From contig NSIB01000003.1 of assembly GCA_002737625.1 (NCBI GenBank), positions 1-47,448 of the forward strand: a stretch of DNA of 47,448 nt. The letters are read 5' to 3'. The notes below the pieces were generated by a model. The model saw nothing but the letters and a program-made list of their open reading frames with translations, was not told where the DNA came from and did no database searches. Numbering within the stretch: position 1 is the stretch's first letter; each line of letters starts with the position of its first letter. Shown piece after piece: positions 8,725 to 45,015 of the stretch. The DNA is from Flavobacteriales bacterium. GTDB lineage: Bacteria; Bacteroidota; Bacteroidia; NS11-12g; UBA955. The translations under genes were made by a program, and so were the position numbers.

Positions 8725-8855
8725 AGCAAAATCAAGGATTTTTGTATTAAAATCGACTGGGATTCTAGGGTGTTGGTCAGATTATTGTGTATTGCACCAA
8801 TCTCTTGAAAACTTGTGCATACATAGCCGTCTTTTATCGTCAATTTTGAACCTTT

Positions 8856-9713
8856 ATGGAATCCCTCAATATTGTTTCATCCATGGTCACTATGGCTACA
8901 CAAATTCGGCGCGATATACTTCGCATGGTTCATGCTGTATCCAGTGGGCACCCTGGTGGTTCTTTGGGCTGTGTGGATTATTTTACTGCGTTGCATTTTC
9001 ATTTCATGAAGCACAATGCGGCCAATTTTAACATGAGTGGAAATGGGGAAGACGTTTTCTTTTTGAGTAATGGGCACATTTCGCCGGTTTATTACAGTAC
9101 GTTGGCTCGCTCGGGTTACTTTCCAGTAGCAGAGTTGGCCACTTTTCGTAAATTGAATTCAAGGCTACAAGGTCACCCCGCAACCCACGAGCACCTTCCA
9201 GGTATTCGTGTTGCGACAGGCTCTTTGGGACAGGGTTTGAGCGTAGCGTCCGGCTTGGCGCTTCAGAAAAAAATTGATCATGATACTCACACGGTTTGGG
9301 TGGTTACCGGCGATGGAGAATTGCAAGAAGGTCAGATTTGGGAGGCGGTAATGTTTGCGGCCCACCGAAAATTGGATAATATGATCGTTGCGGTTGATTT
9401 CAATCAGAAACAAATTGATGGATCTACAGGCGATGTGATGGGCTTAACGGAGTGGACGTCGAAATTCTTGGCCTTTGGCTGGGAAGTGTTGGAAATGGAT
9501 GGTAACAACTGGGATAGCATCATGAAAGTGATTCCCGAGGCCCAGTCTAAGTTGGGTGGCGGCAAGCCGATTGTGATCATCATGAAAACTGAAATGGGGC
9601 AGGGTGTTGACTTTATGATGGGCACACATGCTTGGCATGGTAAGGCTCCGAACGATGAACAGTTGGAGCGTGCGTTGGCACAATTGCCTGAGACGGCACA
9701 CGGAGATTATTAA
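8856..9713 (+). CDS. Transketolase, N-terminal (TPP-binding) subunit
   Basis: SGHPGGSLG, LSNGH, LQGHP, TGSLGQGLS, GDGELQEGQIWEA...N. Confidence 0.95.
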   Translation: MESLNIVSSMVTMATQIRRDILRMVHAVSSGHPGGSLGCVDYFTALHFHFMKHNAANFNMSGNGEDVFFLSNGHISPVYYSTLARSGYFPVAELATFRKLNSRLQGHPATHEHLPGIRVATGSLGQGLSVASGLALQKKIDHDTHTVWVVTGDGELQEGQIWEAVMFAAHRKLDNMIVAVDFNQKQIDGSTGDVMGLTEWTSKFLAFGWEVLEMDGNNWDSIMKVIPEAQSKLGGGKPIVIIMKTEMGQGVDFMMGTHAWHGKAPNDEQLERALAQLPETAHGDY

Positions 9714-9761
9714 TGGCATGATAATGGATTGACGGGCATCGAGTTATCCAAAATACAAACT

Positions 9762-11132
9762 ATGAGAAAAATCACGCTATTGCTCTGCTTACTGATTGTG
9801 TCTTCTTTGGGCGCACAAGTAAAAAACGGGTATCCCGGACAAAAAACGCGGATGTTGTTTTTGCTTGACGGCAGTGGAAGTATGTTGGCGGAGATGGGGA
9901 ATTCAACGCGATGGGCGGTAGCTGTTACGTTGATGAATAAAATGGTGGATACGTTGCGGTCGGTTGAGAATTTGGAGGTGGGATTGCGTGTTTTTGGTCA
10001 TACCCAGCCCAACGAGAAAAAAGATTGTAACGACACGAAATTGGAAGTGCCTTTTGCGCCTTTCAATCACAAACAGTTCACGGCTAAATTAAAGACTATA
10101 AAGCCTTTGGGATATACGTCGATTGCGCAATCGTTGTTGGCATCGGCAAAAGATTTTCCTGCAGACCCTACGGCGAGAAATATCATCATCATCATCACAG
10201 ATGGGGTAGAAGAATGCGGCGGAGATCCTTGTGCAATTAGTATCGCCTTACAACAAAAGGGCATTATATTGAGACCGTTTGTTATTGGTTTAGGAACTGA
10301 TAGTGAGGCGTTTAGGAATGCCTATTCATGTACGGGGAGATACTTTAACGCAGAAACGCCAGCACAATTTCAAAAAATTATTGGGGTAATTATCAACCAA
10401 GCGTTGAACAATACAACGGTTCAAATCAACTTGTTGGATAACCAGGGTTTGCCAAGAGAAACGGACGTCCCTTTGACCATTTTTGATGCCGACAACGGTC
10501 AGATGGTTGAGAATGTGATTCATACAATGAACGGAAAGGGTGTGCCCGATACATTGTATTTGGATCCTGTACGTCGTTATAGAGTTGTGGCCCACACCAA
10601 GCCTCAGGTGAGTTCGGAGATTTTTGAAATGGTTCCAGGAAAGCACAATGTGATTCCGTTGCAGACCCCCCAAGGAAGTTTGTTGTTGAAGATGGGAGGA
10701 ATTACCAAATACCCTCGATTGCAGGCCATTGTGCGGAAGGGGAATACCATGCAAACAATCAATGCGCAAGAGTTCAACACAATAGAAAAATATATTGTTG
10801 GGGGTTACGATTTAGAGATTTTAACCATTCCGAGATTAAAATTCAACGGAGTTCAAATCAAACAAAATCAAACATTTACGATAGAGATTCCCAATCCTGG
10901 GGTTTTGCAATTGAGCATTGGCAAGGATGTTACGGGCGCTATTTTTCAGAGGGTGGATAATAAATTGGAGTGGGTGATGGATTTGAGTGGCACGGTGCCA
11001 AAGCAGATGATAAATATGCAGCCTGGCGAATACACGGTTGTTTATCGCACGGCTGGGGAGACACGCACTCTATACAGTAAATCGAAAATATTTAAAATCA
11101 ATTCAGGAACCAATACGCAATTATCTATCTAA
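9762..11132 (+). CDS. Secreted von Willebrand factor A domain protein
   Basis: Signal peptide from ATG 9762; MIDAS motif LLDGSGSM, T (GYTSI), ITDG; beta-rich C-terminal region. Confidence 0.88.
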
Positions 11133-11137
11133 CACAC

Positions 11138-12094
11138 ATGAAATCATACGAAATTTTAGGACAAAAAGACACCCGCAGTGGTTTTGGTGCTGGATTACAC
11201 GAAGCTGGCAAGTTGGACAGCAATGTAGTTGCGTTGTGTTCGGATTTAACGGGTTCTTTGATGATGGATGCCTTCAAGGATGAATTCCCAGAGCGTTTTA
11301 TTCAGGCGGGGATTGCGGAGGCAAATATGATTAGTGCTTCGGCGGGATTGGCTACAGGTGGCAAGATTCCGTTTGCGGGTACGTTTGCGAATTTTGCAAC
11401 AGGCCGGGTATACGATCAAATTCGTCAGAGTGTGGCTTACAGTCATAAGAACGTGAAAATCTGTGCATCGCATGCAGGATTGACATTGGGAGAGGACGGC
11501 GCCACGCACCAAATTTTGGAAGATCTTGGATTGATGAAGATGTTGCCAGGAATGGTGGTGATTAACCCATGCGATTACAATCAGACGAAGGCTGCCACGA
11601 TGGCCATTGCCAAATATGATGGTCCTTGTTATCTGCGTTTTGGTCGTCCCAAGTGGCCCGTATTTATTCCTGAAGACATGCCATTTGAAATTGGCAAAGC
11701 GTTGATGTTGAGCGAGGGCAAAGACGTAACCATTTTTGCTACCGGTCATATGGTATGGAAGGCGATTGAAGCCGGACATGTTTTGGCGGAGAAGGGGATT
11801 GATGCGGAGGTGATTAATATTCATACGATTAAGCCTTTGGATAGGGATGCGATTTTGGCATCGGCGAAAAAGACGGGTTGTGTGGTAAGTGCGGAGGAGC
11901 ATCAGATGAATGGCGGTTTGGGTGATAGCATTGCTCAATTGTTGAGCAGGGAGTTGCCAACACCGATGGAGTATGTGGCTGTGAACGATTCATTTGGAGA
12001 GAGTGGCACGCCGGATCAGTTGTTAGAGAAGTACGGATTAACTACGGCGGCGATAGTGGCTGCGGCGGAACGTGCGATTGCTAGAAAGGCATAA
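11138..12094 (+). CDS. Transketolase, C-terminal subunit
   Basis: [53 protein letters not shown]. Confidence 0.95.
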
Positions 12095-12146
12095 AAGGTT
12101 AGACAAATTCAGATCGTTGCGGGTCGTTTCGATGCGTATGCGGTTG

Positions 12147-12154
12147 TATCTTTG
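12147..12154 (+). promoter_or_regulatory. Candidate -7 promoter box for mfd
   Basis: TATCTTTG is an exact TAnnTTTG match abutting the terminator hairpin; no clean -33 TTTG seen. Confidence 0.5.
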
Positions 12155-12183
12155 AGGCCCGGCGAAGCCGGGCCTCTTTTTTT
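12154..12183 (+). terminator. Intrinsic terminator after the transketolase operon
   Basis: GAGGCCCGGC-GAA-GCCGGGCCTC (10-bp perfect stem) followed by T7. Confidence 0.85.
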
Positions 12184-12205
12184 ACGGGGTAGTGAGCAAT
12201 ACACG

Positions 12206-15200
12206 ATGAATACGAGAGAAATTTTGGGTGCCTTTGCCCAAATCCAACCCATGCAAGCACTGTCGGCCGCGGCGGAGCACGCGGCCGAACCCATCTACCT
12301 CCAAGGGCTGGCTGGCTCGGGCTTCGCCCTCGCCACCGCCACCCTCTACGCTTCAATATCCCGTCCCATCATCGCAATCCTCCCCAACAAAGACGAAGCC
12401 CAATATTTTAAATCCGACCTCGAAAATCTCCTCGTCGGTGAATCCATCTATTTCCTCCCAGATTCCTTCCTCAAACCCTATAATGCCGCCCGTGAAAATG
12501 CCATGGGTGTGCAAGAACGTATCGAAACCCTCAATGCCCTTCGTAAAAATAACAAACGCATCTTCGTAACCTATGGCTCCGCCATAGCAGAATATGTGGT
12601 CGATAAAATTGAACTCGAAAAATCTTCCATCGATATCGCTAGAGGCCAAAATCTAGATACCGAATTTTTGATGGAATTTCTGGAAATCAATGGCTTTGAA
12701 CGACGGGATTTTGTGTTCGCTCCCGGTGAATTTAGCATCCGCGGGGGAATTGTCGACCTATTCAGTTTCGCCCACGAATTCCCCTTTCGCATAGAACTCG
12801 ATGGTGATATCATCGAAAGTATCCGTACGTTTGATGTCAACGACCAACTTTCCCTCAAAGAAATTGCCCATTTCTCGCTTCTCCCCAATATTCAAGATCA
12901 ACGCGATCAAGAAACCACAATATCCATTACCGATTACTTTGATCCTAAAACACTGGTTGTTGCGTTCGACCTTAGCTTTCAAATTGAAGAACTTGGCAAA
13001 GCCTGGGAAAAAGCCCTCCAAATCCATCAAGAAGCCGTTGATTTTGGCAGAGAAGTCATCCCCAAACACCCCAAACAAATTTGGAATACGCCCAAAGGCC
13101 TCATGTCGGCCCTACAGCCCTTCACTCAAATACATAATAGCGGCGCTAGACCCACCGGAAAAATTGAAATTATCGAATTCTTGCAACAGCCGCAACCGCT
13201 CTTCAAAAGGAATTTTTCGATGCTCACCGAATGGATGCAATCCAATAAAGCCGAAGGCCTATCAACACTTGTATTTAGTGAGAATAGCCGTCAGATAGAA
13301 CGACTCATTGCAATTTTAGCCGATACCCAGTCCCAAGTCAGCTTTGAACCCGTGTATCAGGGATTGTCGTCCGGATTTGTGGATCGCGACGTAAAAATTG
13401 CTTTTACAACAGAGCATCAGCTGTTTGATAAATATTATCGTCCGCGGGGACGACAAAAATATTCGTCGCAAACATCGCTCACGTTAAGAGAACTAAAACA
13501 CTTAAAACCCGGGGATTTTGTTACTCATATTGATCATGGCATCGGCAGATTTGCGGGCCTGGAGAAAATGGATGTTCACGGTGTAAAGCAGGAAGTGGTG
13601 CGCATCGTATACAAGGACAACGATTTACTCTATGTGTCTGTGAATAGTTTGCACAAAATAAGTAAATACACAGGAAAGGATGGCACACCCCCAAGCATGC
13701 ACAAGTTGGGGAGTCCACAGTGGGATAAACAGAAAAAGGCGACAAAAAAGAAGGTTAAAGATATTGCCCGAGAGTTGATTGCATTGTACGCAAAGCGGAA
13801 ATTACAGCAGGGATTTGCGTTTGGGCCAGACAATTATATGCAGATGGAGTTGGAAGCCAGCTTTTTTTATGAGGATACGCCGGATCAAGCCAAAGCGGTG
13901 GAGGATACAAAACGAGATATGGAATCTCCGCAGCCGATGGACCGATTGGTGTGTGGCGATGTGGGTTTCGGCAAAACAGAGGTCGCCATGCGCGCCGCAT
14001 TTAAAGCCGTTTGTGATAGTAAACAGGTGGCGGTTCTAGTGCCAACAACAATTTTAGCACAACAGCATTTCCGTTCATTCTCAAAGCGATTTGCGGGGTT
14101 TCCTATAACCGTGGATTATATAAACCGATTTAAATCGGCCAAGGAGCAAAAAGACACATTGGAGAAGGTGAAAGCGGGAAAAGTAGATGTGCTCATTGGT
14201 ACGCATCGTATTTTAGGCAAAGACATCGAGTTTAAAGATTTGGGGTTGATGATCATCGACGAAGAACAGAAATTTGGTGTGGCCGCCAAAGAGAAATTGA
14301 AGGAATTTAAAGTAAATGTGGATGCACTCACACTCACGGCTACACCCATACCGCGGACTTTGCACTTTAGCTTGATGGGAGCTCGGGATTTGTCTATTAT
14401 TAACACCCCACCGCCCAACCGTCAGCCTGTGCATACCGAATTACACATGTTCAACAAGGACTTAATTGCCGAGGCGGTTCAGCAAGAAATGGAACGGGGC
14501 GGACAGATCTTCTTTGTTCATAGCCGGGTGAAAGACATCCATGAGATGGCCAGAATTATTGGAGATCTGGTGCCTGGATGCAGGGTTTGTGTGGCTCATG
14601 GTCAGATGGAAGGACATGAATTGGAAGATGCGATGGTTCAGTTTATTGAGGGGGAGTTTGATGTACTCGTGGCAACAACCATTATTGAGAGTGGGTTGGA
14701 TATTCCCAATGCCAATACAATTATTATCAACAATGCGCACATGTTTGGTCTGAGTGATTTGCACCAAATGCGGGGTAGGGTGGGCCGTAGCAATACCAAG
14801 GCTTTCTGTTATTTGCTTTCACCTCCGGTATCTGTTTTGAGTGAGGATGCGCGGAAAAGATTGCGCACGTTGGAAGAATACAGTGAATTGGGCAGTGGGT
14901 TTCAGGTTGCGATGCGGGATTTGGATATCCGAGGGGCTGGAAATTTATTGGGCGGAGAGCAGTCTGGATTCATCAGCGAAATGGGGTTTGACATGTATCA
15001 TAAGATTTTGGATGAAGCGGTGAGGGAGTTAAAAAATGAAGAGTTTGATGCGTTGTTTGATCAACCCGACGATATCAGCAGCCGAGACTGTCAAGTAGAT
15101 ACCCAATTTGAAATGCTCATTCCATCGGAATACGTCACCCAAACCTCGGAACGATTGGCGTTGTACAGTGAATTATCAAATATTAATACGGAATTGGAAT

Positions 15201-15550
15201 TGCAGCGATTTGCAAACAATTTAAAAGATCGATTTGGTAAAATTCCAAATACGGTGGCGGCATTATTGGATACCGTTCGATTAAAATGGGCGGGCAAACA
15301 GCTTGGAATGGAGAAAATTTCACTCGGAAACGGTGGAATGCGTTGCTATTTTCCTGGCGATGCCAATGCGGCAGTATATCACAGCGACAGTTTTGTGGCC
15401 ATTATGGGTTTTGTTGCTAGCAATCCCAATAAGTTTAGCGTTAGACAAACCGATAAAGCGCTGATTGTGAGTGTGAAAGGGTTGGAAACGGTTTTCGAAG
15501 CGCTCCATGTATTGGGGGAATGGGACTTGCATCGGACAACAGAAATATAA
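12206..15550 (+). CDS. mfd: Transcription-repair coupling factor
   Basis: GEFSIRGGIVD, CarD-like HIDHGIGRF, CGDVGFGKTEVA, DEEQKFGV, TATPIPRT, QMRGRVGRS, DLDIRGAGNLLG. Start set at ATG 12206. Confidence 0.98.
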   Translation: MNTREILGAFAQIQPMQALSAAAEHAAEPIYLQGLAGSGFALATATLYASISRPIIAILPNKDEAQYFKSDLENLLVGESIYFLPDSFLKPYNAARENAMGVQERIETLNALRKNNKRIFVTYGSAIAEYVVDKIELEKSSIDIARGQNLDTEFLMEFLEINGFERRDFVFAPGEFSIRGGIVDLFSFAHEFPFRIELDGDIIESIRTFDVNDQLSLKEIAHFSLLPNIQDQRDQETTISITDYFDPKTLVVAFDLSFQIEELGKAWEKALQIHQEAVDFGREVIPKHPKQIWNTPKGLMSALQPFTQIHNSGARPTGKIEIIEFLQQPQPLFKRNFSMLTEWMQSNKAEGLSTLVFSENSRQIERLIAILADTQSQVSFEPVYQGLSSGFVDRDVKIAFTTEHQLFDKYYRPRGRQKYSSQTSLTLRELKHLKPGDFVTHIDHGIGRFAGLEKMDVHGVKQEVVRIVYKDNDLLYVSVNSLHKISKYTGKDGTPPSMHKLGSPQWDKQKKATKKKVKDIARELIALYAKRKLQQGFAFGPDNYMQMELEASFFYEDTPDQAKAVEDTKRDMESPQPMDRLVCGDVGFGKTEVAMRAAFKAVCDSKQVAVLVPTTILAQQHFRSFSKRFAGFPITVDYINRFKSAKEQKDTLEKVKAGKVDVLIGTHRILGKDIEFKDLGLMIIDEEQKFGVAAKEKLKEFKVNVDALTLTATPIPRTLHFSLMGARDLSIINTPPPNRQPVHTELHMFNKDLIAEAVQQEMERGGQIFFVHSRVKDIHEMARIIGDLVPGCRVCVAHGQMEGHELEDAMVQFIEGEFDVLVATTIIESGLDIPNANTIIINNAHMFGLSDLHQMRGRVGRSNTKAFCYLLSPPVSVLSEDARKRLRTLEEYSELGSGFQVAMRDLDIRGAGNLLGGEQSGFISEMGFDMYHKILDEAVRELKNEEFDALFDQPDDISSRDCQVDTQFEMLIPSEYVTQTSERLALYSELSNINTELELQRFANNLKDRFGKIPNTVAALLDTVRLKWAGKQLGMEKISLGNGGMRCYFPGDANAAVYHSDSFVAIMGFVASNPNKFSVRQTDKALIVSVKGLETVFEALHVLGEWDLHRTTEI

Positions 15551-15577
15551 AAATCTTTGTAGGAATCACGCCATAAA

Positions 15578-16408
15578 TTATATCTTTCTAATGCCAGTTT
15601 CTTCGATGATGATTGCCTTGGCTTTGTACAAAACGCCAACGGTTTGTTTGAAAGCTTTTTTACTCATTCCCAATTTCGATTGAATGAGATTCGCATCAGA
15701 TTTGTCGTGCAGTGCTAAAAATCCCCCCGCAGCGGTGATAGCCTCTAATACAGTATCGGACAGGGTACTCACTTTCTTATGTCCCATCGGGGTAAGAGAT
15801 ACATCTACGTGTCCATTCTCTCTAACCAATCGAACATAGCCTTTTAATTGATCGCCCATTTCAATTCGTTGAAAGACTTCGTTTTTGTAAATAATTCCCT
15901 GATGCTTTTGGTTGATAATGACTCTAAACCCAATTTCAGTTTCTTCAAAACACAATAAATCAACGGCGGTATTATAAAGTAAGTGTACGTCCGTTTTTTC
16001 GAGCCATTTGGAAATTTTTGTACTGGCTAACAGTCGATCAGTGACTTCGTCGCGATACAAATATGCTACAGAGTGCTCTCCCTCCACCAGTTTGCGATGT
16101 TGTTCTTTGAAAGGTACGAAAAGGTCTTTCTCCAAACCCCAATCCAAGAATGCACCTATCCCAGTCGCTGAAACCACTTCCAAACATGCGAATTGCCCGA
16201 TTTCAATCATCGGAACAACGGTAGTGGCTGTTAAGCGGTCTTCTGAATCTCTAAAAATGAAAACATTAATTACATCCCCTTCAATGGCCTCGGACGGACA
16301 AAATTTATTGGGTAGTAATACTTCTACTCCCATTTCATCAACCAAATACCAACCTTGAGGTGTATCGTGATGAAAGGTCAAATCAAGGAATAGGCCGGTC
16401 TGAATCAT
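15578..16408 (-). CDS. cvfB: CvfB/YitL family S1-domain RNA-binding protein
   Basis: EVLLPNK, VFIFRDSEDRL, GAFLDWGLEKDLFVPFKEQ, C-terminal winged helix GMSKKAFKQTVGVLYK. Start set at ATG 16408. Confidence 0.88.
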   Translation of the reverse strand: MIQTGLFLDLTFHHDTPQGWYLVDEMGVEVLLPNKFCPSEAIEGDVINVFIFRDSEDRLTATTVVPMIEIGQFACLEVVSATGIGAFLDWGLEKDLFVPFKEQHRKLVEGEHSVAYLYRDEVTDRLLASTKISKWLEKTDVHLLYNTAVDLLCFEETEIGFRVIINQKHQGIIYKNEVFQRIEMGDQLKGYVRLVRENGHVDVSLTPMGHKKVSTLSDTVLEAITAAGGFLALHDKSDANLIQSKLGMSKKAFKQTVGVLYKAKAIIIEETGIRKI

Positions 16409-24186: not shown

Positions 24187-25305
24187 ATGCGGAAAGTAAA
24201 TTCTTTTTTTGAAGTAAATTTAGTCCTGGGATTGGGTTTCCTATTGATTTTGGCTGGTTGCGGTGCAATGGGCTCCAAGAGACATGGGTGCAAGGTGGAT
24301 ACGCATCTTTTAGATTCGCTTCTTGCATCGGGTTCCAATCAACCACCGGTGGCTCCTCTTCGGGTGTCGTTTTATAATTTGGAGAATTTATTTGATACGG
24401 TAGATGGTCCAAACGACGATACGGAGTTTTTGCCGAATTCGGCGAATGCATGGAACGGTGAGAGGTATAAGAGTAAGTTGCGGAATATGGCGCAGGTTAT
24501 TGATAGTATAGCACCTGACATTTTGGGATTGGTAGAATTAGAGAATGCTTTTGTTTTGGAGGATTTGCGTGCCAACAGTGTGGTGATGAAGGGGAAGTTT
24601 GAGATTGCGCATCGGGAATCTCCGGATTTAAGGGGTATTGATGTTGCGCTGATGTATAATGCGGAGTTATTTAGAATTTCTGGGATATGTATGATTCCAA
24701 TTACTTTGCCTGATGGTTATGCCACGCGGAGTATTATGCGGGTTCATTTGGTTGAGAAGGGCACGGGTGATTCTTTGGCGGTATTTATTAACCATTGGCC
24801 AAGTCGTCGCGGCGGTGCGGCCAGTGCGGCAAGCCGCATGGCCGCCGCCGCCGCTCTCTTGCAAAACATTCAATCTTTACCCAATCTACCCAATAATTAT
24901 ATCCTTTTGGGTGATTTTAACGATGATCCAGAAGATAAATCAATCACCGAGGGTCTCAATGCTGGTGATTCATATCACCCCATTGTCAATTTGGCTTTTC
25001 TTGCGCGCGCGAAAGACACTACCGTGGGCACCATTGCTTGGTATGATGGCTGGAATATGTTTGATCAAATCATGTTGAGTAGGGCCCTGTATTTTGCCAA
25101 CTTGCACAACAATGAAACACTGGCCAACAAACAAATTGCCGTTGCTGAGCCTCGTATCAACGTATATAAACGCCCTTGGATGCTTCAGCATGGAGGGAAA
25201 TACGATGGTTGGCCCTTGCGAACCTTTGCCGGTAAAAAATACATGAATGGGTATTCAGATCACTTGCCCGTCTATACAGACCTGGTCCTCGTGCATCGTC
25301 ATTAA
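24187..25305 (+). CDS. Endonuclease/exonuclease/phosphatase family lipoprotein
   Basis: Lipobox LAGC; FYNLENLFD, GLVELEN, SPDLRGIDVAL, NHWPSRRGG, LGDFND, WNMFDQI, GYSDHLPV. TATCTTTG box at 24172-24179. Confidence 0.9.
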   Translation: MRKVNSFFEVNLVLGLGFLLILAGCGAMGSKRHGCKVDTHLLDSLLASGSNQPPVAPLRVSFYNLENLFDTVDGPNDDTEFLPNSANAWNGERYKSKLRNMAQVIDSIAPDILGLVELENAFVLEDLRANSVVMKGKFEIAHRESPDLRGIDVALMYNAELFRISGICMIPITLPDGYATRSIMRVHLVEKGTGDSLAVFINHWPSRRGGAASAASRMAAAAALLQNIQSLPNLPNNYILLGDFNDDPEDKSITEGLNAGDSYHPIVNLAFLARAKDTTVGTIAWYDGWNMFDQIMLSRALYFANLHNNETLANKQIAVAEPRINVYKRPWMLQHGGKYDGWPLRTFAGKKYMNGYSDHLPVYTDLVLVHRH

Positions 25306-42552: not shown

Positions 42553-45015
42553 GTGACGGAGATTCAGACCCTTTTTGCGCATGTGTTGGTGCCAGTGCCG
42601 GTGCCAAAGGCCTATACGTATCGGGTTCCTCACGATTGGAACGACTGGATTCATCAGGGTTTGAGGGTTGCGGTGCAATTTGGACCAAAGAAGATATATG
42701 CAGGAATTATTTTGGAGCTGAGTGATTCTCCACCGGAGGGTTATCAAGCTTCTTATATCTTGGATGTGTTGGACGATGCACCCATTGTGAATCACAAGCA
42801 ATTGCAGTTTTGGCGTTGGGTGGCCAAATATTATATGTGTTATTTGGGGGAGGTGATGGCTACTGCGTTGCCAGCGGGGTATCGACTTCAGAGTGAGACG
42901 AAGATTGTTTTGCATCCCGATGCAGATTTGGAAGCGATAAGTAGGACTGATGTTGAAGATTTGGAGTGGCAGATTTTGGAGTTGTTAGGGAAGAAGGATG
43001 GGATGTCGTTGGACGATATACATCAAAAGCTGGCGGTTAAGAATGTGCTGAAGCATGTTAAGTCGTTGTATTTAAGGGGTTTGGTGGTAATGGAGGAGGA
43101 GTTGAAGGAGAATTATCGACCTAAATATGAGGAGTTTTTAGAGTTGTGCAGTATTTGGGATGATTCGGAATTGGCAAATTCGAGTTTGAACGCGTTGGAG
43201 CGACGTGCACCGAAGCAGTATGAGGCGATTATGCATATTTTGGGGACGGGAAAGAGGGAGTTGACGGTGGAATCAATTGTGAAGGGATTTGAGATGGACA
43301 GGACGGTGCTGAAGCAGTTAGAGAAGAAGTCGTTGATAATGATTGTGAAGCGCCGCCGCGATCACCTTCAGGTGATCCGCGGCGGCGCGCAAGAATACCA
43401 ACTCACCGAATCTCAGTCGCGGGCCCTTGGAATCATTCGCGCTGGATTTGAAGAAAAACAGCCGGCCTTGCTTTACGGGGTTACGGGATCGGGTAAAACC
43501 CATGTGTATATGGAGTTGGTGAAGGAGACGTTGGCGGCGGGGAAACAGGTGCTTTATTTGTTGCCAGAGGTTGCACTAACGGAGCATATGGTGGCTCGGA
43601 TGGGTGCGTTTTTGCCGGTGGAAATTGGCGTTTGGCATCACTTTTATAGTTCTCACGAGAGGACGGAATTGTACGATCGGATATTGAAGGATCAAATCCA
43701 GTTTGTGGTGGGTACTAAAGGGGCGGTGTTTGCTCCTTTTTCTAATTTGGGGTTGATTGTGGTGGATGAGGAGCATGAATCAACGTATAAGCAGTTTGAT
43801 AAAAAGCCATTTTATCACGGTCGGGATTCGGCGTTTCAGTTGGCCAAGTATCATGGGGCCAATGTTTTGTTGGGTTCGGCTACGCCGAGTTATGAAATGC
43901 AGTTTGCTGTGCAGCAGCATCGTATGGTAATTGCCGAAATAACGGAGAAGTACGATGGCGGAAAACCGGCTGAGTTGATGTATTTGAATATCGGTGAGTT
44001 GAAGAAAACGGGTCAGATGAATTCGTTGTTTTCCGAGCCGGTGAGGATGGCCATTCAGAAGGCGATGGATGTGAAGCAGAAGGTGGTGGTGTATCACAAT
44101 CGAAAGGGGTATGTGCCTTATATTGAGTGTGGGGATTGTGGGTTGACAACGCAGTGCAAGCATTGTGATATTTCGATGACCTACTATAAGAGTTCAGACA
44201 ATCAGCGATGCAGTTATTGTGGGTTTCAGCAGCCGGTACCATCGAAATGTGTGGCCTGTGGTTCTCAGGATTTGAAGTTGAAGGGGACGGGCACGGAGAA
44301 GTTGGCGGAGGAATTGGGGCAGCTGTTTCCCAAGGCTAGGGTGGCGCGGTTTGACCAGCAGAGCATGCGGAAGCGGGATGATTTTCAGAATATTTTGACG
44401 GCGTTTGAGCGGGGTGATATTGATATTTTGGTGGGGACGCAGTTGTTATCGAAGGGGATTGATATAGAGAATATCGGCTTGGTTGTGGTGCCGGATGCGG
44501 ATATGTTGTTGCACATTCCTGATTTTAGGAGTCATGAACGGGCATTTCAGCAACTGCAACAATTGAGTGGTAGGATAGGGCGCCGCGCGGAGCGCGGCGT
44601 GATGATGTTACAGACATATCAACCGGAACATGAAGTATTGAAGTCCCTGAAAGCCGATGATTACCAAGGGTTGATGCAAGTGGAAATGGAGCAGCGCGAA
44701 GCCTTCGGCTATCCTCCTTACACAAAGTTGATTAAGGTGGATGTGAAGCACATAGATGCACAAGTGGCGACCGAGGCCAGCCGTTGGCTGGCCGACCAAT
44801 TGCGAAAGCAATTGGGGAACCTGGTGCTGGGGCCCCAGGTTCCTTCGGTCGCCCGCATAAAAAATCGATTCATCCAGCAAATTGTCATCAAGGTCCCCCG
44901 AGAAACCGCCCAACTGAACGCCGCAAAATTCCTATTGCAACAAGTTCGTGAAGCGGCCTTGGCTCACAACAGTTGGCGTTCGGTTCGCATCGATATTATC
45001 ATCGATCCCAATTAA
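42553..45015 (+). CDS. priA: Primosomal protein N' (replication restart helicase)
   Basis: YTYRVP, GVTGSGKT, DEEHE, GSATPS, four CxxC pairs, GTEKL, PDFRSHER, GRIGR, YPPY, DPN end. Confidence 0.97.
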   Translation: MTEIQTLFAHVLVPVPVPKAYTYRVPHDWNDWIHQGLRVAVQFGPKKIYAGIILELSDSPPEGYQASYILDVLDDAPIVNHKQLQFWRWVAKYYMCYLGEVMATALPAGYRLQSETKIVLHPDADLEAISRTDVEDLEWQILELLGKKDGMSLDDIHQKLAVKNVLKHVKSLYLRGLVVMEEELKENYRPKYEEFLELCSIWDDSELANSSLNALERRAPKQYEAIMHILGTGKRELTVESIVKGFEMDRTVLKQLEKKSLIMIVKRRRDHLQVIRGGAQEYQLTESQSRALGIIRAGFEEKQPALLYGVTGSGKTHVYMELVKETLAAGKQVLYLLPEVALTEHMVARMGAFLPVEIGVWHHFYSSHERTELYDRILKDQIQFVVGTKGAVFAPFSNLGLIVVDEEHESTYKQFDKKPFYHGRDSAFQLAKYHGANVLLGSATPSYEMQFAVQQHRMVIAEITEKYDGGKPAELMYLNIGELKKTGQMNSLFSEPVRMAIQKAMDVKQKVVVYHNRKGYVPYIECGDCGLTTQCKHCDISMTYYKSSDNQRCSYCGFQQPVPSKCVACGSQDLKLKGTGTEKLAEELGQLFPKARVARFDQQSMRKRDDFQNILTAFERGDIDILVGTQLLSKGIDIENIGLVVVPDADMLLHIPDFRSHERAFQQLQQLSGRIGRRAERGVMMLQTYQPEHEVLKSLKADDYQGLMQVEMEQREAFGYPPYTKLIKVDVKHIDAQVATEASRWLADQLRKQLGNLVLGPQVPSVARIKNRFIQQIVIKVPRETAQLNAAKFLLQQVREAALAHNSWRSVRIDIIIDPN
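43350..43388. other. Intragenic GC-rich hairpin (17-bp stem, one bulged C)
   Basis: GCGCCGCCGCG-ATCACC-TTCA-GGTGAT-c-CGCGGCGGCGC read directly. Confidence 0.85.
44766..44853. other. Intragenic four-way cloverleaf (closing stem plus three hairpins)
   Basis: Perfect Watson-Crick stems of 9, 8, 8 and 9 bp joined by 0-2 nt linkers; pairings are given in the findings. Confidence 0.85.

Follow-up and report, generated by a model that had tools for sequence, protein, structure and literature searches.

Bacterial GC skew is usually read as a two-domain signal, with one origin and one terminus. Why, then, does the strand bias flip between tktC and mfd, two neighbouring genes on the same strand? Is the flip genuine, does it act on DNA or on RNA, and what fixes its position? 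The flip lies in a window of 47,448 nucleotides (the whole stretch analysed, from contig NSIB01000003.1 of the Flavobacteriales assembly GCA_002737625.1; the host group are freshwater bacteria).

The skew switch between tktC and mfd

The initial annotation had counted G30/C10 at 11881–11960 and G7/C31 at 12341–12420, and a recount returned exactly these numbers. The switch persists at four-fold degenerate sites and is strongest at synonymous sites: G26/C11 in the 3' half of tktC (from 11600), then in mfd G18/C87 at 12302–13351 against G86/C57 at 13502–15547 (Fisher p 7e-9 and 6e-12). With amino-acid and codon-family effects removed, no step in the genome (1.46 Mb) is stronger (z 9.4). The C-rich bias is gone by about 13.35 kb, where the annotation had placed its end. 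The contig is G-rich along its whole length, with a baseline of +0.09, and most of the switch signal therefore comes from the C-rich right arm. The G excess of tktC is small in some relatives, and tktC as a whole has no G-directed bias in a clade-wide rate fit (to-G/from-G 0.93–0.95). The description of the switch as a strand-symmetric, DNA-level effect centred on a cluster of hairpins (Table 1), each strand differing where it nears the hairpin from its 5' side, was upheld.

Could the switch be made by an assembly chimera, a foreign insert or amino-acid composition? The bin does contain one contaminant contig (C8), which is separate from the contig bearing the switch. Independent contigs cross the site: 8800–16400 lies in a single contig in two of four runs, from separate studies, and a further run has a contig covering 10500–13728, with no chimeric join. 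The tktC–mfd junction is present in all 14 other genus loci reaching that far, the step is shared with relatives and the effect stands at synonymous sites, which leaves such an origin a negligible chance. The tktC/mfd skew switch is real.

Table 1. Genes, hairpins and tracts of the window
Feature	Position	Strand	Remarks
tktC, transketolase C-terminal subunit	11138–12094	+	Pfam PF02779/PF02780; left, G-rich arm formed by its 3' half
Perfect 10-bp GC-rich hairpin, C-GAA-G triloop, then T run	12154–12176		Intergenic
mfd, transcription-repair coupling factor	12206–15550	+	Pfam TRCF, CarD_TRCF_RID, UvrB_inter, DEAD, Helicase_C
Hairpin within mfd, 9-bp stem, one bulge, C-GGA-G loop	12263–12288		Overprints codons SAAAEHAAE
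C-rich synonymous tract of mfd (G-rich on minus strand), ~1 kb decay	12302–13351	+	Four-fold G18/C87; A>C 4.0, T>C 2.6
Short hairpin, TTC loop (minus strand: GAA), 4-bp core	12319–12329		DNA fold -6.4/-7.0 kcal/mol; codons conserved
7-bp hairpin, TCC loop, within mfd	12571–12587		Own step absent (z 1.1)
Second site: long imperfect GC-rich hairpin, CAAG loop (not GNA)	24809–24854		Fold -25 kcal/mol; G-to-C step z 6.0
Third site: 8-bp hairpin, C-GGA-G loop, within priA	44581–44599		G-to-C step z 7.8
Four-way palindrome (cloverleaf) in priA adjoining third site	44766–44853		Fold about -41 kcal/mol; step z 6.0

How well are these structures kept? The intergenic hairpin has one genomic copy, even at up to 3 mismatches; in relatives it carries a GAA or GCA loop on an altered stem. 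The hairpin close to the mfd start (placed at ATG 12206 from relatives) has all seven four-fold positions at a major-allele frequency of 0.97–1.0 (36–37 loci), whereas of 436 other sites 9% reach 0.93 or more; it is missing from two sister genomes, G012 and G017. The 7-bp hairpin is present, among mfd loci, in its own genome only. The second site sits in an endonuclease/exonuclease/phosphatase gene (Pfam PF19580), and the priA hairpin of the third is retained in 15 of the 19 genus genomes having sequence there. Nearest-neighbour DNA folding scores both hairpin strands alike.

C-GNA-G hairpins across the genome

Is the locus a singular case? The genome has 72 GC-rich hairpins with a C-GNA-G triloop and a stem of at least 7 bp, a density of about 5 per 100 kb (the pattern SSSCGNAGSSS is too loose to separate them), and all four middle bases are represented (GCA 34, GAA 19, GGA 12, GTA 7). 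Genes hold 53 of the 72, among them priA, dnaG, adk, murD and hisS, and coding stems reach 23 bp. Coding C-GNA-G hairpins with stems of 8 bp or more number 44, against 2, 1 and 1 in three codon shuffles; other triloops in coding DNA show no excess (25 observed; 23, 28 and 19 in shuffles). Loops flip between GNA and TNC, altering amino acids, while stems persist.

At the 69 scorable hairpins the step is positive in 61, with z>2 in 42 and z<-2 in none; 5.9% of random positions lie beyond the threshold in each direction. From the side of the steps, a C-GNA-G hairpin lies within 300 bp of 17 of the 23 G-to-C steps with z of at least 5 (random positions 3%) and, by the hairpin rule applied, is absent at six. 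None of the 26 opposite (C-to-G) steps with z of at least 4 has one within 300 bp. Mean skew is 0.21 before the hairpin and 0.01 after it, around a baseline of about 0.09, and strong sites reverse sign. The profile is the same whichever strand holds the loop, whichever way the gene points and whether the gene is head-on or co-directional. On each strand the G-rich arm extends about 1 kb 5' of the hairpin, and the contig baseline is regained within 1–1.5 kb. The tktC/mfd switch is one of dozens of kilobase-scale flips from G-rich to C-rich that C-GNA-G hairpins mark.

Could transcription be responsible? A terminator or Rho effect was rejected as the cause of the steps, since skew is flat, with no step, at non-GNA intergenic hairpins (ordinary terminators), and flat at 1,039 hairpin-free gene junctions except for +0.035 at divergent ones. 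The Rho-loading tract that the annotation had offered for the 5' region of mfd likewise fits poorly, for steps are found in the middle of genes and between convergent ones (three of eight scored convergent sites, z 3.5, 4.0 and 2.9), and half of the effect is gain of G before the hairpin. Unlike a rut tract, the C-rich tract of mfd is coding and follows the hairpin, and G is on average not lowered. Might selection instead favour C-rich flanks after the hairpin on either strand, which would serve as a Rho trap for transcripts that a two-way hairpin promoter starts, or as a zone where a polar translocase loads? To the right of the hairpin N>C is raised and C>N lowered, a fixation-bias signature, and raised gain with lowered loss is also expected under weak selection. 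The rule is strand-symmetric, hence the sense strand is always C-rich past the hairpin crossed; N4 vRNAP promoters, in the available part of PMC13037366, are GNA hairpins. Against it, the convergent-gene steps come without C-rich sense RNA, C is gained after the hairpin while G is on average unchanged (0.236 vs 0.234), the flanks have no motif excess and most of the hairpins lie in coding sequence. We regard flank selection as unlikely.

The flanks were searched for motifs and folds. G-runs and G4-like motifs are not in excess in hairpin flanks, nor is the KOPS motif GGGNAGGG (5 observed against 3.2 +/- 1.5 in the flanks of 40 sites), and long fold-back of the flanks is not supported (paired, observed/expected: 178/175, 448/412, 2427/2384). 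A repeat family or mobile element was also rejected: the hairpin sequences are not repeated, and a Y1 transposase (PF01797) was found in 0 of 20 genus genomes, 10 of them under 90% complete or over 5% contaminated, against 6 of 14 controls.

Does the step depend on the hairpin? Contrasts within the clade where hairpins have been lost lean toward such a link, but overlap. With classes assigned by eye and overlapping, the mean step is 0.36 with the hairpin (11 genomes) against 0.16 without (5) in polX, 0.22 (7 genomes) against 0.06 (3) in GH3, and 0.54 (15 genomes) against 0.48 and 0.39 in priA, the neighbouring cloverleaf being disregarded. Of the two sister genomes, G012 has 5 hairpins in 1.17 Mb, a mean skew of 0.035 against 0.088 and one DnaE, and G017 is similar; a second DnaE is found in 17 of the 19 other genus genomes and is lacking in these two (PF07733 genes: two in G000, G003 and G018, one in G012 and G017). 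Hairpins, steps and second DnaE are thus nearly absent together, in a single phylogenetic contrast, and the sisters do carry a few hairpins that have steps (z 4.3; z 2.3–2.8). The second DnaE is not sufficient, because 57/74 family genomes having it show no hairpin excess; in four of them, 100 kb each contained 0 hairpins. The protein is shorter, has both catalytic-region motifs and scores 434 bits against an NCBIfam error-prone cut-off of 939 bits, and its gene neighbours resemble, by sequence, an FKBP-type isomerase and a DNA ligase. A single Y-family gene lies away from it in all five genomes tested. Repair-gene loss was rejected as a cause, UDG, MutS, HhH-GPD and Y-family genes occurring in hairpin-rich and hairpin-poor genomes alike, and a synteny screen (1,247 predicted proteins against 62% of G012, N-termini compared by eye) gave no further clade-specific DNA enzyme. 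Other hairpin-rich lineages are genus g14, G098, G108 and G109; G074–G076 and G083 are hairpin-rich as well, and G094, which lacks a second DnaE, has 9 motif matches.

Substitution spectra and the cause of the bias

Which substitutions build the arms? Rates were fitted at near-saturated sites with six bootstrap replicates. Right of the tktC/mfd hairpin, A>C reaches 4.0 and T>C 2.6 (far zones 0.8–1.4), and G>A is 1.5 (far zones 1.0–1.7). Pooling four sites, the 5' strand gains G near the hairpin relative to far (T>G 2.16/1.35, C>G 1.40/1.08) and loses it less (G>C 0.39/0.68, G>T 0.74/1.15); C>T is 1.38/1.72. A>G is not elevated in this fit (2.21 near, 2.23 far), unlike two-fold-site composition, which suggests an A>G gain on the 5' strand. 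The total substitution rate near hairpins is not elevated either (3.39 against 3.63 far). The bias is similar on shallow and deep branches (ratio 2.5–5.1 against 5.2–5.6, p 0.2–1.0 in a low-power test), which, together with the lack of motif excess in the flanks, is as expected of a mutational cause.

The annotation had favoured breaks and resection that expose 3' tails, followed by cytosine deamination, and had predicted C>T on the left of the hairpin and G>A on its right. The polarity is correct, C at two-fold sites falls on the 5' side (0.288 to 0.235; 0.308 to 0.210) and four-fold C>T in tktC is 1.75. The predicted pair is not seen in the fitted rates, however, as neither pooled C>T nor right-side G>A is raised. 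Four-fold T falls while G+C rises, G>T and G>C drop on the supposedly exposed strand, and 16 of 20 genus genomes have a UDG-family gene. This chemistry fails on G gain and G protection, and the explanation is very improbable.

Would recombination do better? If the hairpins were cut, or acted as structural Chi sites, heteroduplex repair could raise G+C and add a strand bias. G+C indeed climbs near hairpins, symmetrically and with an exponential-like decay, GNA loops favour the G-rich strand (49:23, p 0.003), and GNA mini-hairpins withstand 3' exonuclease, as far as the available part of the literature goes. A Chi-like signal should, however, be one-sided by strand, and here both arms appear whichever strand bears the GNA. 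The biases known for G.T and G.A repair increase G+C but produce no skew. Recombination hot spots are accordingly improbable.

Another candidate, also put forward in the annotation, is local fork convergence: the hairpin would be a two-way barrier ending short repair- or R-loop-primed forks, a miniature terminus that reverses the leading/lagging bias. The polarity at hairpin sites is that of a terminus, strong sites reverse sign, and the change in composition has an antisymmetric component similar to the replichore bias of the genome itself. Yet a 1 kb decay would demand very short replicons, a clear one-way baseline is kept along contigs, mean skew does not fall below 0.01 after the hairpin, and the symmetric G+C rise is left unexplained. 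We consider this, too, an unlikely cause.

A restart reading and its relation to known systems

What process would join the direct observations, namely the hairpin family, its siting at steps, the polarity, the decay over ~1 kb, the N>G gain together with protection of G on the strand 5' of the hairpin, and the shared scarcity of hairpins, steps and second DnaE in two sister genomes? The best reading, to which we give a probability of about 0.4, is that a hairpin sets the place at which a polymerase prone to misinserting C restarts the strands. A GC-rich C-GNA-G hairpin would fold on single-stranded template and block the replicative polymerase; a polymerase that restarts synthesis or fills gaps, probably the second DnaE and with a preference for misinserting C, would then copy the template stretch 5' of the hairpin, on both strands. 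C placed opposite damaged or misread A, T or C would give N>G on the template, and C opposite damaged G, being correct, would lower G>T and G>C. Acting at a low level on the lagging-strand template, this process could also account for the replichore skew, which is strong and linked to G+C. Template switching, nucleated by the stable GNA loop, likely keeps the hairpins perfect; the two arm ends show paired change in the window, and G013 has an inverted spacer. It is a doubtful further step to see scores of fixed restart sites on the chromosome, in the form of gene-overprinted mini-hairpins at which a dedicated low-fidelity DnaE starts strands both ways and leaves kilobase footprints that set local skew and G+C.

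Why does this matter? A 20-base structure resets strand bias locally, dozens of times, and alters host proteins. The hairpins are a natural map of a second mutational process, with tract length (~1 kb), polarity and spectrum measured and sister species as controls, which makes testable what causes skew when deamination does not and how a second DnaE raises G+C. If the restart reading is true, restart sites can be read from genome sequence alone.

The pattern itself is new, a link of GNA hairpins to local skew not being found in the literature searched; the likely mechanism is made of known parts. The closest structural match is the d(GCGNAGC) mini-hairpin DNA of Hirao, a C-GNA-G triloop on a GC-rich stem as here. 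The available part of PMC13037366 places such extra-stable hairpins at phage G4 priming sites, RSF1010 ssiA and N4 promoters, each a single phage or plasmid site, and contains no skew; ours are chromosome-wide, mostly genic and each with a compositional footprint. Judged from sequence, they resemble ssi/pas priming signals in the loop. REP/RAYT palindromes are likewise dispersed short GC-rich hairpins, unlike ours in having a shared sequence or end tag; here stems differ and most are coding. Coding palindromes of Nematomorpha mitochondria are perfect inverted repeats overprinting proteins too, gained and lost and probably maintained by arm conversion (PMC6649704, in part); the word skew is absent from the text available, and the bacterial hairpins have one loop type and a 1 kb flanking bias.

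For the enzymology, hairpin bypass by Pol zeta/Rev1 in yeast is a working analogue, with stalling, C insertion by Rev1, template switching and error-prone extension; in the part of PMC3874155 available the enzymes are eukaryotic, mutations cluster at the hairpin and no genome-composition footprint is claimed. DnaE2/ImuC offers a further comparison: a second, shorter DnaE in both, and transversions towards G:C and C:G that match the Caulobacter spectrum, where the mutations that depend on imuB/imuC(DnaE2) are G:C>C:G and A:T>C:G (PMC3901139, whose available part describes no site-targeting by hairpins). The replication terminus (ter/dif), finally, has the same polarity from G-rich to C-rich and a lasting reversal of skew, once per chromosome over hundreds of kilobases; here the flips number 23 or more per 1.46 Mb, each of about 1 kb and each returning to baseline.

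The skew switch at tktC/mfd and its counterparts across the genome

The initial annotation described an abrupt flip from G-rich to C-rich sequence at the tktC/mfd boundary, and its hand counts are exact on recount; both flanking genes lie on the plus strand. Could this be an effect of protein sequence, or of a faulty assembly? The bias resides at synonymous sites: at four-fold degenerate positions G/C counts are 26/11 over the 3' half of tktC, then 18/87 for the part of mfd between 12302 and 13351, and 86/57 for the remainder of mfd. Contigs from two independent studies cross the region and the tktC–mfd junction is common to relatives, so a skew that vanishes at synonymous sites and a chimeric join are both set aside. 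Close relatives of the source genome are recorded as freshwater Bacteroidota/Flavobacteriales MAGs.

Is the switch a singular event? The source genome was scanned over 1,247 genes, called with a simple codon model, using third-position G minus C with codon-family means subtracted. G-to-C versus C-to-G steps number 23 versus 7 at z≥5 and 6 versus 0 at z≥7; the tktC/mfd step ranks first, and the window has two further strong steps. Step centres, when listed, contained GC-rich palindromes with three-base loops. In coding DNA, stems of at least 8 bp with a GNA/TNC triloop occur 44 times, against 2, 1 and 1 in codon shuffles, by which measure other triloops are overall at chance level; GC-rich stems with non-GNA loops are also in excess, but less so. 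Of 72 hairpins with a C-closed loop and a stem of at least 7 bp, 69 could be scored: the step is positive at 61, exceeds z=2 at 42 and falls below z=−2 at none. Such a hairpin lies within 300 bp of 17/23 steps at z≥5 and 30/61 at z≥4, compared with 3% of random positions, and of 0/26 opposite steps. Six strong steps (z≥5) have no qualifying hairpin, several of them having imperfect or other-loop stems (for example the CAAG hairpin in the table).

Table. Features of the window, the source genome (G000) and its hairpin-poor sister G012.
Feature	Location	Remarks
von Willebrand A domain gene	window 9729-11132	separates two halves of split transketolase
tktC	window 11138-12094 (+)	
Hairpin	window 12154-12176	intergenic
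mfd	window 12206-15550 (+)	
Hairpin	window 12263-12288	inside mfd
Long hairpin, CAAG loop	window 24809-24854	strong step at 24.8 kb; overprints alanine-rich stretch of endonuclease/exonuclease/phosphatase protein
Step	window ~28430	z 4.6; no strong hairpin detected there
Step	window 44.6 kb	strong; priA site
Second dnaE (L187)	G000:C25:633-3662	~1,009 aa; carries conserved hairpins
13-bp perfect hairpin, AGA loop	G000:C12:3903-3931	inside Y-family polymerase (dinB-like) gene; weaker step, z 3.9
28-bp perfect stem, GCA loop	G000:C10:20496-20554	between B12-dependent ribonucleotide reductase gene and proS
Hairpin in glycoside hydrolase 3 gene (L314)	G012:C41 near 9545	identical to G000:C6:10277; step z 4.3; either relic or gene acquired by transfer

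Footprint and direction of substitution

The fork-oriented score rises from 0.10 to 0.21 on approach to the hairpin, falls to 0.01 and has recovered by 1–1.5 kb; within 1 kb its antisymmetric component shrinks from 0.10 to 0.015. This shape is independent of loop strand, gene direction and coding status, and the G-rich strand bears the GNA loop 49:23. An explanation by forks converging at the hairpins is one that we consider unlikely. 5' of the hairpin G climbs from 0.234 to 0.377 at the expense of A, C and T; past it C climbs from 0.191 to 0.300 with G unchanged, and G+C thus rises on both sides. Selection acting on the flanks is just as improbable a cause. The flanks of 40 sites gave neither a motif nor an arm-pairing signal.

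Non-reversible rate matrices fitted on fixed trees give, to the right of the focal hairpins (137 sites, 42 loci), A>C 4.0, T>C 2.6, G>C 1.2, C>A 0.52, C>G 0.21, C>T 0.69 and G>A 1.5. A fit that pools 601 near sites in 18 genomes from mfd, priA, polX and the second dnaE has T>G and C>G raised and G>C and G>T lowered on the strand 5' of the hairpin, where transitions are not raised and the total rate is flat; the near/far contrast is blunted by some G bias in the far class as well. Deamination of cytosines in exposed 3' tails, put forward in the initial annotation, predicts the opposite of the fitted C>T and G+C behaviour near hairpins. Fitted by itself over the clade, tktC has no bias towards G. 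A test of low power gives no significant difference between shallow and deep branches.

The stem within mfd is near-invariant at synonymous sites, of a kind that elsewhere differ by 40–60% between species. In the window, the two arm ends of the mfd hairpin have changed as a pair, with two residues altered as a result; in one relative (G013) the spacer is inverted. The second dnaE retains two stems whose loops vary among TGC, TTC, GAA, GGA, GCA, GTA and TAC, changing amino acids, with GNT loops at one stem in three genomes. This pattern fits arm conversion by template switching and in itself is no proof of selection, an argument also made for Nematomorpha (PMC6649704). Recombination at the hairpins, as the origin of the steps, is if anything slightly less probable than the two alternatives already named. 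Host genes, from a scan of 43 references covering part of the hairpin genes, are diverse (adk, mnmA, murD, ftsW, hisS, a menD-like gene and others); several act in DNA metabolism (mfd, priA, the second dnaE, polX, dnaG, dprA and a UvrD/AddA-like helicase).

Lineage distribution and the second DnaE

Two sister genomes, G012 and G017, have 5 hairpins in 1.17 Mb examined of ~1.9 Mb and 3 in 120 kb (all clustered at one site), respectively. The hairpins of mfd, priA and polX are missing from both, the steps at these genes are small or absent, and replichore skew is weaker. The additional skew of the source genome is a gain of G on the G-rich strand (0.244 versus 0.171), and over 60 contigs skew correlates with four-fold G+C (Spearman 0.73; 0.33 in G012). 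Contig C8 of the source assembly is a contaminant, its first 20 kb at least 95% identical to G012 C11, and brings a second mutS into the bin.

A second DnaE is present in 17/19 other genus genomes and absent only from these two sisters. Near residue 410 of this protein many relatives carry an insertion of 50–100 aa, absent in G000, G003 and G005. Among 94 family genomes, a clear excess of the hairpin-core motif (at least 19 matches and 2.5 times the reversed control) occurs in 17, spread over four genera, all of which have the second DnaE (one as a fragment). The excess is found in 0/20 genomes without a second-DnaE match and is missing from 57/74 with one; four polymerase-positive, motif-poor genomes have 0 hairpins in 100 kb each and steps that are weak at most. 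Given the shared ancestry of related genomes and the high G+C of the motif, this survey suggests that the second DnaE is possibly needed, and not sufficient.

A candidate mechanism and its parallels

How might a hairpin leave such a footprint? Whether it blocked a polymerase or restarted a strand, the template 5' of it would be copied by whichever enzyme resumes. Were that enzyme to prefer inserting C, changes of N>G with G spared would accumulate along ~1 kb of either strand. This inferred action of a C-preferring enzyme is the sole reading to cover polarity, symmetry, spectrum, G+C rise and lineage pattern together.

Full-text searches, reaching few subscription papers, turned up no description of local skew steps anchored at hairpins in any bacterium; passages of one study treat aberrant skew only as possible mis-assembly, and its supplements list genomes with odd skew (10.1101/808410). 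Support for the C-preferring enzyme comes by analogy from known systems: G:C>C:G and A:T>C:G changes depend on DnaE2 in Caulobacter (PMC3901139), Rev1/Pol zeta act at hairpins (PMC3874155) and mini-hairpins occur at priming sites (PMC13037366).
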